Origin: a virus
Taxonomy: Duplodnaviria; Heunggongvirae; Uroviricota; Caudoviricetes
Reading direction: 5' to 3' (one strand)
DNA: 2,891 nucleotides
IMG/VR virus record: IMGVR_UViG_2695420569_000031
A program made the position numbers and the translations under genes. The notes beneath the pieces are model-generated. The model made no database searches. It worked only from the letters and a program-made list of their open reading frames with translations, and had not been told where the DNA came from. The stretch's first letter is position 1. Each line of letters opens with the position of its first letter. Shown here piece by piece: positions 1-2,891 of the stretch.

Positions 1-243
1 TTATCTTGAAGGGTTAGTTGATGCGCCATTAACCTGAGCATTATTTCTTTCCCACTCCAGAATATCAGAAAGCCACCAACGATTGGGGTTTCCCTTTATT
101 GTTGGTTTAGGAAATGGTTTGCTGAGGGACTTTGGCTTTCTGTCTGGAGTACTCCAGAAATACAGAGTGCTTCGTGAAATTTTATATCGTTCCAGAATAT
201 CTTTGGTTAACAAGATTTCATTTGTTTTTGTAATGTCGTTCAT
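1..243 (-). CDS. AlpA/excisionase-like small helix-turn-helix DNA-binding protein (80 aa)
   Basis: Complete ORF with ATG at 243..241 and TAA at 3..1. GGAG Shine-Dalgarno at 253..250, 6 nt before the ATG. The protein carries the pattern I associate with the phage AlpA family: 'SRSTLYFW', then 'KPFPKP', then 'G..NRWW...ILEW'. Family assignment is from motif recall, not alignment. Confidence 0.6.
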   Translation of the reverse strand: MNDITKTNEILLTKDILERYKISRSTLYFWSTPDRKPKSLSKPFPKPTIKGNPNRWWLSDILEWERNNAQVNGASTNPSR

Positions 244-277
244 TTTATTCTCCAGTTGAATTGTTTAATCATCGAAA

Positions 278-295
278 AACCGCCCGAAGGCGGTT
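278..295 (-). terminator. Putative intrinsic terminator hairpin (7-bp GC-rich stem, UUCG loop) followed by a short U-run on the minus-strand transcript
   Basis: Minus-strand RNA reads AACCGCC-UUCG-GGCGGUU then UUUCG. It begins 2 nt after the TGA of the 297..548 ORF. The U-tract is only 5 U including stem bases, so strength is uncertain. Confidence 0.45.
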
Positions 296-296
296 G

Positions 297-548
297 TCAG
301 TTGATTGATGTGCGGCGCATTTTGCGAAGGCTGGCAATATGCTTTTCCTTCTCAATTTCTGCTTTAATCATGTGTAGTTCGTTGTGATCGATTCGCTCAA
401 ATTCTGCATTAAATGCGCTAATTGAAGCGGCTCTGGTTCTCCCATCCAGCCTTCGGAAGATTACCTGCGTCAGAGTGATTTTGCAGACTTCAACCGGATA
501 GTTGTTGGCATCGACGAAAGACTGCCCGCGCTGGATTAGAACGAACAC
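297..548 (-). CDS. Hypothetical small protein (83 aa), apparent GTG start
   Basis: The ORF is closed upstream by an in-frame TAA at 563..561. The first in-frame start is GTG at 548..546, with an AAGGA Shine-Dalgarno at 562..558, 9 nt upstream. The only in-frame ATGs are far internal (residues 60 and 77). It sits immediately downstream of exo in the same orientation. No family recognised. Confidence 0.55.
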   Translation of the reverse strand: MFVLIQRGQSFVDANNYPVEVCKITLTQVIFRRLDGRTRAASISAFNAEFERIDHNELHMIKAEIEKEKHIASLRKMRRTSIN

Positions 549-596: not shown

Positions 597-1277
597 CTAT
601 CGCCATTGCTCCCCAAATACAAAACCAATTTCAGCCAGTGCCTCGTCCATTTTTTCGATGAACTCCGGTACCATTTCGTCAAAAACCTCCATGTATTTTT
701 CATCCCGTTCGACCACGACATAATGCAGGCCTTCACGCTTCATACGCGGGTCATAGTTGGCAAAGTACCAGGCATCTTTTCGCGTCACCCACATGCTGTA
801 CTGCACCTGGGCCATGTAAGCCGACTTTATGGCCTCGAAACCACCGAGCCGGAATTTCATGAAATCCCGGGAGGTAAACGGGCATTTCAGTTCAAGGCCG
901 TTGCCGTCACTGCATAAACCATCGGGAGAGCAGGCGGTGCGCATACTTTCGTCGCGATAGATGATCGGGGATTCAGTAACATTCACGCCGGAAGTGAACT
1001 CAAAGAGGGCTCTGGCGTCGTTCTCGTACTGTTTTCCCCAGGCCAGCGCTTTAGCGTTAACTTCCGGAGCCACACCGGTGCAAACCTCAGCCAGCAGGGT
1101 GTGGAAGTAGGACATTTTCATGTCAGGCCATTTCTTTCCTGAGCGGGGTTTTGCTATCACGTTGTGAACTTCTGAAGCGGTGATGACGCCGAGCCGTAAT
1201 TTGTGCCACGCATCATCCCCCTGTTCGACAGCTCTCACGTCGATCCCTGTACGTTGCAGGATAATGTCCGGTGTCAT
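597..1277 (-). CDS. exo: Lambda-type 5'-3' exonuclease (Red alpha / lambda Exo), 226 aa
   Basis: Translation '[37 protein letters not shown]...[11 protein letters not shown]' matches lambda exonuclease as I know it, same length. It contains a PD-(D/E)XK nuclease motif ('[18 protein letters not shown]', about 885..925). GAAGGT Shine-Dalgarno at 1289..1284. The start ATG (1277..1275) overlaps the bet stop as ATGA. Confidence 0.96.
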
Positions 1278-2059
1278 GCTGCTACCTTCTGCTCTGTGAC
1301 TTTCTGTTTCAGGAATCCAAGAACCTTCACAGCTTCAGCCTGTGTTAGTTCTGAAGATGTGTAAATGTTGCGGCGAAAAATCTGGGAACAGAGCGGCAAC
1401 AGGTCGTCATCCCACGTTTTTTCCATGGAAGTAAGAAGGGCGTTAATTTCCGACATGGTTTCTTCGTTAACCGGGGTGATGTCGCGTTCCGGCTGACGTT
1501 CTGTAGTATATGCAGTATTTTCGACAATACGCTCGGCTTCATCCTTGTCATAGATGCCAGCAAATCCGAAGGCCAGGCGAGCACACTGAATCATGGCTTT
1601 GTGCCGTAACATCCGTTTGGGATGCGACTGCCACGGTCCGGTGATTTCTCTGCCTTCGCGGGTTTTGAATGGTGCGCGGCGACATTCATCCATCCACTCG
1701 GTAACGCAGATCGGGTGATTGCGATCTTTGCGGTAAATCCGGCATGTACAGGACTCATTGTCCTGCTCAAAGTCCATGCCATCAAACTGCTGGTTTTCAT
1801 TGATAATGCGGGACCAGCCATCAACGCCAACCACCGGAACGATGCCGTTCTGCTTGTCAGGGAAGGCGTAAATTTCTTTCGTCCAGGGATTAAGGCCGTA
1901 CTGGTTGGCGACGATCAACAATGCGATAAATTGCGCATCGCTGGCATCACCTTTAAATGCCGTCTGGCGAAGAGTGGTGATTAGTTCCTGTGGGTCGACA
2001 GAATCCATGCCGACACGTTCAGCCAGCTTCCCTGCCAGCGTTGCGAGTGCTGTACTCAT
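1274..2059 (-). CDS. bet: Single-strand annealing protein Red beta (lambda Bet; RecT/Red-beta family), 261 aa
   Basis: Translation '[72 protein letters not shown]...' matches lambda Beta as I know it, same length and C-terminal '...EQKVAA'. AGAGG Shine-Dalgarno at 2074..2070. TGA stop at 1276..1274 overlaps the exo ATG. Confidence 0.96.
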
Positions 2060-2064
2060 CCGTT

Positions 2065-2361
2065 TTATACCTCTGAATCAATATTAATTTGGTGACGGGC
2101 GATGGTTTCAGCCATGTAGCGGATGTGTTCTGCCATGCGTTCCTGAAAATCGACATCGTCATCAAATGCACGGGAAATAGCTTTTTTGCTGGCCCCGTGA
2201 CGTTGCAGATTATCGATGCATAGCGATTCAAACAGGTGTTGGGGCAGACCTTTTTCCAGGTCGTCTGCCAGCTCAGCTTCAGTTTCTTCACGGGCAATTT
2301 GCTGGTAGTGTCGTGCCCATGACTGCTCTTCAATGCGATCGGGGATAAGCCAGGCATTCAT
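2065..2361 (-). CDS. gam: Host-nuclease (RecBCD) inhibitor Gam, short 98-aa form
   Basis: Translation '[60 protein letters not shown]...IDSEV' matches the GamS portion of lambda Gam. Strong AAGGTGA Shine-Dalgarno at 2374..2368, 6 nt before the ATG (2361..2359). An in-frame TAA at 2367..2365 lies one codon upstream, so no longer form is possible here. Confidence 0.94.
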
Positions 2362-2861
2362 GATTTATCACCTTCGAAATTTTCAAGCCTGTTGGCAATC
2401 ATGATGGCGATATCAGGGATTGCTGGCGCTGTGGCTATACATGCGGGGTTGGCGCACAAACCATAGACGGCGGCAATCACGAGCTGTCTTTTCCAGTCGA
2501 GAGTTACTGGCTCAGAATTGGCGTCATCGCCGGACGTATCACTGCCTGGCTCGTTCTGAACAACGGTTTCGCCCTCCTGAGCGGCATCAACAGAGTTTTC
2601 CTGAATGATCTTCTCCTCAGTTTGTGCTGAGTCTTCTCCATCAGCGGCGTCATTTTCTCCAAAAGTTTCAGCGTAAGTTTCATCTCCCATTACTGGACCA
2701 CAGTCAGGGCAATGGCCGCCACCGTTCTGACTGCATGTGGTGCAAACCTTTTCCACTTCCTGTTGCATTACTGGCCCTGGCTGTTGAACCGCCCCGGGTT
2801 TCCTGGAGAGTGTTTTATCTGTGAACTCAGGCTGCCAGATCATCGTTTCCGATGGAAGCAT
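2358..2861 (-). CDS. Hypothetical protein (at least 167 aa) at the kil position upstream of gam: CxxC-x7-CxxC motif, acidic low-complexity tract, hydrophobic Cys-containing C-terminus; 5' end uncertain
   Basis: Long minus-strand ORF whose TGA stop (2360..2358) overlaps the gam ATG as ATGA. Residues 40-54 read '[15 protein letters not shown]' (about 2700..2744). Residues about 59-118 are rich in D/E/S/T/Q (about 2508..2687). The C-terminal '[33 protein letters not shown]' is hydrophobic. There is no in-frame stop between 2862 and the window edge at 2891, and the Shine-Dalgarno before ATG 2861 is weak, so the true start may lie beyond the window or at an internal Met. Confidence 0.65.
2368..2374 (-). 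promoter_or_regulatory. Ribosome-binding site for gam, embedded in the 3' end of the upstream ORF
   Basis: Plus-strand 'tcacctt' is AAGGUGA on the minus-strand mRNA, with a 6-nt spacer to the gam ATG. Confidence 0.7.
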
Positions 2862-2891
2862 AATAAGCTTTTTCTGCTTCTGCCGGAGGAG

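Follow-up and report, generated by a model that had tools for sequence, protein, structure and literature searches.

An open reading frame upstream of gam as a very probable IS629-truncated remnant of a RecE-family gene

Introduction

The best-described relative of the gene considered here is RecE of the Rac prophage of Escherichia coli K-12, a protein of 866 residues, of which residues 564-866 hold the nuclease activity (PMC11611040). Relatives of Rac RecE that lack a nuclease domain, termed RecE-2, were reported in lambdoid phages in 2025, and the passages of that report that deal with them give their roles as unknown (PMC12315714). In the prophages of E. coli O157 Sakai, lambda-type Red modules are distinct from modules of the Exo VIII type, and most are disrupted (PMC2669165). 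Other RecE-family proteins, such as that of E. coli O103:H2 PV16-126, carry a DnaQ-like 3'-5' exonuclease domain. In phage lambda, the gene directly upstream of gam is kil; lambda Kil and Rac KilR are both inhibitors of FtsZ.

The window analyzed here is a stretch of 2,891 nucleotides from a virus of the class Caudoviricetes (IMG/VR record IMGVR_UViG_2695420569_000031). It contains an open reading frame (ORF) of 167 codons directly upstream of gam, which is very probably the remnant of a RecE-family gene truncated by the insertion sequence IS629. The intact parent gene resembles that of Rac RecE in its core (RecE residues ~230-410), in a CxxC-x7-CPDC motif and in an acidic linker, and both genes belong to an early-left operon of the Rac type, downstream of kilR and ydaE. 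In contrast to Rac RecE, the parent ends in a 45-residue tail instead of the nuclease domain PF12684, and is followed by gam-bet-exo rather than recT. The RecE-2 proteins, compared here by their description only, are likewise related to Rac RecE, without a nuclease domain and encoded in the early-left operon; however, they are called "distantly related", and the text describing them is silent on a tail module and on the Cys motif (PMC12315714). The DnaQ-like members have the DnaQ-like domain in place of the tail, but agree with the parent in the N-terminal region, the Cys motif and the acidic linker; the PV16-126 locus is without a downstream gam-bet-exo. The likeness to lambda Kil and Rac KilR is one of position only, with no sequence relationship to the ORF.

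Gene organization of the window

The minus strand is the coding strand of every gene in the window. The genes, with their supporting domain matches, are as follows.

1-243, minus strand: excisionase-like gene
297-548, minus strand: DUF4222 gene
597-1277, minus strand: exo, lambda-type, intact; YqaJ domain (Pfam), E 4.2e-30
1274-2059, minus strand: bet, intact; RecT family (Pfam), E 3.3e-33
2065-2361, minus strand: gam, intact, 98 aa; PF06064 (Pfam) over its full length, E 4.8e-65
2358-2861, minus strand: the ORF under study, 167 aa from the first ATG (2859-2861), with its stop at 2358

The genes bet and exo are named bet and lambda exonuclease in the annotation of E. coli ML35; together with gam, they constitute a lambda Red module downstream of the remnant. 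The reading frame of the ORF is open as far as the window edge at 2891.

The initial annotation regarded the ORF as an unrecognized stand-alone protein, with the reservation that it might belong to a known but poorly annotated lambdoid family. A Pfam search with the 167-aa translation gave zero matches. Against PHROGs, the ORF matches phrog_607 (E 1.9e-20) at profile positions 475-618 of 883, in the middle part of long "exonuclease" families, and against NCBIfam it matches the exodeoxyribonuclease VIII model NF007259 (E 7.7e-17, 60.7 bits) at model positions 512-598 of 877. The same model matches the intact parent with an E-value of 7e-223 (see below). The ORF is thus recognizable as a RecE-family fragment, and it was the reservation, rather than the claim, that anticipated the outcome: a RecE-family parent that is functionally uncharacterized.

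Insertion junction

A search of complete E. coli genomes with the whole window showed that at least 80% of it is present in 79 of 5,426 genomes. Identity to E. coli ML35 is 100% over positions 1-2786 and ends there. When the segment 2358-2891 was compared with phages by megablast, the query fell into two parts. Query positions 1-429 match the gene adjoining gam that is annotated as exodeoxyribonuclease VIII, with 99.5% identity in phage PhiR5_2, and query positions ~416-534 match copies of IS629 in Stx phages with 96-99% identity. In a three-way alignment, the window follows the ML35 gene through ...GGCTGTTG and thereafter the IS629 terminus, TGAACCGCCCCGGGTTTCC..., and the terminal TG at 2785-2786 is common to IS629 and its target, leaving the junction ambiguous by 2 nt. 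The element, whose transposase is co-oriented with the prophage genes, is seen over 107 nt only, as the window edge falls inside it. The parts on either side of the junction are as follows.

2785-2891, minus strand: right end of IS629 (IS3 family), 96-99% identity; annotated as a mobile_element in phage 1717
2827-2891, minus strand: 3' end of the IS629 orfB transposase gene, stop TGA at 2827-2829, in a frame that differs from that of the 167-aa ORF
2785-2861, minus strand: IS-derived leader of the chimeric ORF, residues 1-26 and the ATG at 2859-2861, from the junction alignment
2358-2784, minus strand: native 3' remnant, 141 codons plus stop, equal to parent residues 550-690, from ML35 identity and the junction alignment

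The C-terminus of OrfB at the window edge is identical to the end of IS629 OrfB in phage 1717. Since the edge of the window is an IS629 terminus, residues 1-26 of the ORF and its ATG are derived from the element, and only residues 27-167 are native. An out-of-frame reading of the element identical to that of the leader is also found at the junction in E. coli O103:H2. In complete copies of IS629, the leader frame is closed 27-44 codons upstream and contains no additional ATG. Therefore, in this genome the ORF does not form the C-terminal part of a longer protein, contrary to the expectation that a protein of at least 167 residues has its real start beyond 2891.

No Shine-Dalgarno sequence was found upstream of the ATG at 2861 or of the other in-frame starts of the 167-aa ORF. 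The exact 167-aa product has no entry in an index of 153 billion genes, and the exact junction between IS629 and the gene has no match in genome contigs, metagenome contigs, phages or the 5,426 complete E. coli genomes. In the finished genome of E. coli O103:H2 PV16-126, a diverged allele is interrupted at the homologous nucleotide by a full IS3-family element, and both halves of the gene are annotated as pseudogene pieces. Additionally, the records of E. coli and Shigella contain many short "partial" fragments of the RecE-like gene.

Junction with gam and position of kil

The stop codon of the ORF (TGA, 2358-2360) and the start codon of gam (ATG, 2359-2361) overlap in the sequence ATGA, as initially annotated, and the intact operon natively has this overlap. 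The coupling of gam translation that had been read from it does not follow, as gam has a Shine-Dalgarno sequence of its own, AAGGTGA, at 2368-2374, six nucleotides from its ATG. In most orthologues, which end in ...NFGGDKS, the corresponding region is GGAGGTGA. Translation of gam is thus independent of coupling, and the insertion need not silence gam given read-through transcription. The minus strand between 2300 and 2891 showed no terminator-like site.

The ORF had also been assigned to the position held by kil in lambda. It has no Pfam match, and thus none to the Kil/KilR family. In intact relatives, a Rac-type kil/KilR gene (PF27398) is located two to three genes upstream of the RecE-like gene; in ML35 and PhiR5_2, a 128-aa ORF and then the Rac-type kil are found further upstream of it. 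With a separate KilR upstream in the relatives, the ORF is no replacement for kil.

The intact parent gene and its relationship to RecE

In ML35 and phage PhiR5_2, gam is preceded by an intact coding sequence for 690 residues (WP_032207275, "RecE family exodeoxyribonuclease"), whose stop overlaps gam exactly as in the window. The same layout of parent and gam is found in phages PhiR5_2 and 75/02 Stx, as well as in contigs carrying the variant P0128.

A BLASTP comparison, as proposed in the initial annotation but performed with the parent, relates it to a characterized family: it shares 51% identity with K-12 RecE over 598 aligned positions (E 4e-179), covering RecE residues 43-578, with near-identity in the RecE segment ~230-410. 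In Pfam, the parent has PF06630 alone (E 1.4e-12), whereas K-12 RecE also has PF12684 at residues 615-850. The PD-(D/E)XK nuclease domain represented by PF12684, which is the C-terminal, catalytic part of RecE (564/606-866), is absent from the 690-aa parent by Pfam, and only 45 residues follow the linker. The NCBIfam model NF007259 matches the parent at model positions 1-598 of 877 with 742.4 bits (E 7e-223), below the curated cut-off of 1269 bits. Thus, of the features of a RecE, homology in the N-terminal region is present, and the nuclease domain, an equivalog-level score and a downstream recT are not; the genes downstream are gam, bet and a lambda-type exo. No chain matched when the parent was compared with PDB sequences, including those of the 3H4R type.

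The parent is therefore a RecE-family gene without the nuclease domain, which consists of the RecE N-terminal region, a C4 Cys motif, an acidic linker and a C-terminal module. More than 100 clusters (90% identity) of 680-700 residues in E. coli and Shigella have the same architecture, and all of them are called exodeoxyribonuclease VIII.

Cysteine motif and acidic linker

Three segments can be distinguished in the native remnant.

2655-2744, minus strand: putative C4 zinc knuckle, CTTC-x7-CPDC (2700-2744), and a conserved segment; alignment of 20 members
2499-2651, minus strand: acidic linker, 51 residues, computed net charge -14
2361-2498, minus strand: conserved tail module, about 40-46 aa, the C-terminus of the parent; selection and alignment

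The Cys motif reported in the initial annotation is present (CxxC-x7-CPxC, 2700-2744) and reads C40-T-T-C43-x7-C51-P-D-C54 in the 167-aa ORF. Across 20 aligned family members, no substitution is seen at the equivalent residues of the parent (C563, C566, C574 and C577), nor at the V, G, D, T, Y, F and E that follow the motif. The motif is kept in K-12 RecE (~518-532) as CNACGQTGGDNCPDC, and was found in 14 of 14 representatives that have the region. It is restricted to an E. coli-like sub-branch, where it is combined with all three types of C-terminal module. The Cys segment shows few changes relative to Shigella phage 75/02 Stx (85% nucleotide identity), with a dN/dS of 0.375. Structure prediction with AlphaFold2, which had been proposed to probe the zinc site, gave a pLDDT of 51-55 over the putative zinc knuckle in a low-confidence model.

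The acidic tract was also correctly recognized (51 residues with a net charge of -14 at 2499-2651). Its dN/dS relative to phage 75/02 Stx is 0.68, at a dS of 0.565. In the 20-member alignment, the tract varies in length and sequence and contains indels, while negative charge is retained among the variants. Its pLDDT is below 50 in both low-confidence AlphaFold2 models. In bona fide RecE, the equivalent tract joins the N-terminal region to the nuclease domain. The tract thus behaves like a fast-evolving linker and not like a structured DNA mimic, for which a conserved, folded acidic surface would be expected; the dN/dS, the indels and the low pLDDT lower the likelihood of a role based on charge.

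C-terminal module

The tail of the parent has the pattern LxWxxQLxIAAxxGLCANPA...MIAN and directly replaces the RecE nuclease domain after ...CSDETGE (RecE ~585). Compared with Shigella phage 75/02 Stx, its dN/dS is 0.07 at a dS of 0.41, and it is under strong purifying selection. The native frame is therefore truly coding in intact relatives. The last ~45 residues are almost invariant across the 20 family members, with the exception of the second Cys of CANPAC, and the last codons of the module contain the Shine-Dalgarno sequence of gam.

The hydrophobic C-terminus with a second Cys pair proposed in the initial annotation is borne out as far as the presence of CANPAC, but the pair is not conserved, the second Cys being Gly in several orthologues. 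A second metal-binding Cys pair was ruled out because relatives have Gly, Tyr, His or Ser at this position.

The wider consensus of the tail is LTYxQQLTIAALQGLCANPA...[DE][DE][IL]PxMA, with A-A-x-x-G-x-C-x-N-P invariant, and the tail in the window carries every invariant residue of it (A, A, G, C, N and P). Matches to the tail are located 6-18 residues from the C-terminus in proteins, including those of other genera, that are 21-32% identical overall. The tail was found in RecE-family contexts only, often in short "partial" fragments. Neither the tail profile nor the profile of the tail-type family had a meaningful match among PDB sequences. The AlphaFold2 models have a mean pLDDT of 32.7 for the 690-aa parent (20 sequences) and 48.8 for the native 142 aa (28 sequences); they suggest a helical tail and an acidic tract without confident structure.

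Distribution and genomic context

An exhaustive search of 1.84 billion representatives identified 209 relatives with an E-value of at most 0.001. The C-terminal architecture was assigned against reference domains for the best 150 of the 209, and among those of at least 450 residues, the C-terminal module is the tail in 21, a PD-(D/E)XK domain in 19 and a DnaQ-like 3'-5' exonuclease domain in 14, while none of these three was detected in 29. In the tail-type family, Pfam recognizes PF06630 only, in 6 of 22 members. PADLOC, whose models cover defence and not anti-defence, gave no match.

The operon on the P0128 contigs has the order N, two ORFs, KilR, YdaE, a 128-aa ORF, the RecE-like gene, Gam, Bet, Exo, DUF4222 and Int. 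In prophages of Buttiauxella, Citrobacter, Cedecea and Lelliottia, the order downstream of the tail-type gene is a small ORF (Rrf2-like wHTH or unknown), an excisionase gene and an integrase gene. At these loci, no gam, bet, exo or recT was found, and there is no ORF of more than 150 aa in the 4.5 kb upstream. Since the Red genes are missing in the other genera, the tail-type protein is the product of an autonomous early-operon gene, and its placement beside gam-bet-exo is a mosaic particular to the E. coli/Shigella lineage. A function of the tail as an adaptor for the downstream Red proteins was ruled out on the same grounds, the tail-type gene being without gam, bet, exo or recT in four other genera.

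Discussion

The arrangement in the window is very probably the outcome of an insertion into a Rac/lambda mosaic prophage with the gene order N ... kilR - ydaE - 128-aa ORF - recE-like (690 aa) - gam - bet - exo - DUF4222 - xis - int. Insertion of IS629 at about codon 549 of the recE-like gene left its final 141 codons joined to gam, and a non-transposase frame across the end of the element by chance supplies 26 codons and an ATG, giving rise to the 167-aa ORF. The remnant probably has no function of its own, and would not be made in useful amounts.

Some points would be consistent with the chimeric ORF being expressed as a functional stand-alone mini-protein, for example one that binds the partner of the tail: it has an in-frame ATG (2861), it retains both of the best-conserved small modules (Cys motif and tail), and a co-oriented IS629 transposase gene together with the lack of a terminator-like site makes read-through transcription plausible, so that transcription out of IS629, or N-antiterminated transcription from pL, could reach the remnant. 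This is quite improbable in view of the missing Shine-Dalgarno sequence at the ATG and the alternative in-frame starts, the absence of the exact product from the 153-billion-gene index, and the annotation of the O103:H2 counterpart as pseudogene pieces; moreover, the junction is absent from the 5,426 complete E. coli genomes and thus has not spread as an allele. The failure to find the exact junction in any of the collections scanned would also be expected if it were an assembly artefact, that is, a chimeric contig formed at a repeat while the real genome carries an uninterrupted gene, and insertion sequences do often break or mis-join draft assemblies. We consider this very unlikely, as the junction falls exactly at the terminal TG of IS629, as a true insertion would, and a diverged allele in the finished O103:H2 chromosome carries an element at the corresponding nucleotide.

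The initial annotation saw in the acidic tract a possible DNA mimic, and took the protein, co-expressed with Gam, for a candidate factor of anti-defence or host takeover. The charge of -14 over 51 residues, its retention among variants, the location in the early-left operon next to an anti-RecBCD gene and the lack of functional characterization of the family all agree with such a role, which is nevertheless quite unlikely. Known DNA mimics such as Gam and Ocr are folded, whereas the tract evolves with a dN/dS of 0.68, has indels and interchangeable sequence variants, and is modeled with low pLDDT. Moreover, the use of the tract as a connector to the nuclease domain in bona fide RecE is the behavior of a linker, and the tail-type gene occurs without gam in other genera. 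No positive support for an anti-defence or host-takeover role emerged, the PADLOC result being that of defence models. Essentially all database records name the parent "exodeoxyribonuclease VIII" or "RecE family exodeoxyribonuclease", and PHROGs assigns it to "exonuclease" families. That it is a real exonuclease VIII is extremely unlikely, since PF12684 is absent, with 45 residues left past the linker; the NF007259 match (742 bits against a cut-off of 1269) ends at position 598 of 877; RecE has its nuclease activity in residues 564-866 (PMC11611040); and a separate lambda-type exo is present downstream.

On the preferred reading, the ORF is an IS629-truncated remnant, a pseudogene piece of a known, functionally uncharacterized family. 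As for the intact parent, we suggest tentatively that it could be a non-catalytic scaffold with an N-terminal core, an acidic linker and a C-terminal docking module. In such a protein, a folded N-terminal core would be connected through the flexible acidic linker to small partner-binding helices. By analogy with RecE, in which the N-terminal region enhances linear-linear recombination, the role of the parent would lie in transactions at DNA ends or in recombination. A stronger proposal, in which the nuclease-less proteins with the RecE N-terminal region and the tail are non-exonucleolytic factors for host interaction or end tethering that dock via GLCANPA, and in which the remnant is still made and engages the partner, is quite unlikely.

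The ORF itself is of little weight, as an insertion-sequence scar in a prophage gene of which identical intact copies are already in the databases. Its parent family has wider implications. Hundreds of entries called "exodeoxyribonuclease VIII" are without the nuclease domain and should not be taken as exonucleases. Moreover, the RecE N-terminal region exists naturally as a separate gene with a conserved C-terminal module of 40 residues, both with and without a Red module. A boost to linear-linear recombination has been observed with full-length RecE, and the natural separate gene provides a clean genetic handle on the role of this region.

IS629 insertion site

An IS629/IS1203-type element is also present in E. 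coli O103:H2 PV16-126 (compared locus L005, ~5113-5139), at the nucleotide homologous to positions 2785-2786 of the window, and the insertion point is the same in both (...GTTG/AACCGCCCC, with the slash marking the junction). The target in PV16-126 is a RecE-family allele that is ~15% diverged and one codon shorter, and at least one SNP separates the IS copies at the two loci. This pattern suggests a hot spot for insertion or, alternatively, an old insertion whose flanks recombined later.

Junction with gam

The gene upstream of gam ends in ...NFEGDKS in the window and in E. coli ML35, as compared to ...NFGGDKS in most orthologues. Within these last codons (window 2362-2376), a single G-to-A change converts the gam Shine-Dalgarno from GGAGGTGA to GAAGGTGA, and this ribosome-binding site is weaker in the window and ML35 as a result. 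Some variants of the conserved C-terminal tail are extended by a short additional sequence, ...GVTDDEYMPNF, DDEHIPDF or SDERLPDF (in P0128, at 7020-7055 of contig L006; also in proteins P0005, P0006, P0008, P0009 and P0143), which resembles the acidic tip at the C-terminus of SSB (DDDIPF). The genes for these variants overlap gam by 23 nt, rather than 4 nt.

Hairpin beside the excisionase-like gene

One further element was noted in the window:

277-297, minus strand: G+C-rich hairpin, AACCGCC-TTCG-GGCGGTT followed by TTTTCG, flanked by the DUF4222 and excisionase-like genes

This hairpin looks like an intrinsic terminator; it was not called by the consensus terminator scan, probably because extension of the stem consumes part of the T run.

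Tail-type genes outside E. coli

In Buttiauxella and Cedecea prophages (compared loci L009, 6141-6506, and L013, 6139-6483), the tail-type gene is directly followed by a winged-helix gene of the Rrf2 family (E 1e-16 to 1e-17), whose start codon overlaps or abuts the stop codon of the tail-type gene. Such a gene is an unusual neighbor in an early-left operon. The tail pattern AA[LVI][QYK]G[LM]CAN was also matched in three cyanobacterial contigs (MAGs; L017-L019), with 50-63% identity across just 19-26 residues; these matches are probably due to chance or to a short shared helix motif.

C-terminal modules and annotation of the RecE family

More than 100 protein clusters without a nuclease domain (P0010-P0128; L001, 8358-10430) are named [quoted passage not shown], with scores far below the NCBIfam equivalog cut-off. 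This naming is a systematic over-annotation. Across the family (representatives P0130-P0276), three different C-terminal modules occur in combination with the RecE N-terminal region: a nuclease of the PD-(D/E)XK type, an exonuclease (3'-5') of the DnaQ-like type, and the 40-residue tail. The modules are swapped directly after the acidic linker, and the boundary between the N-terminal region and the C-terminal module is thus a modular mosaic joint.
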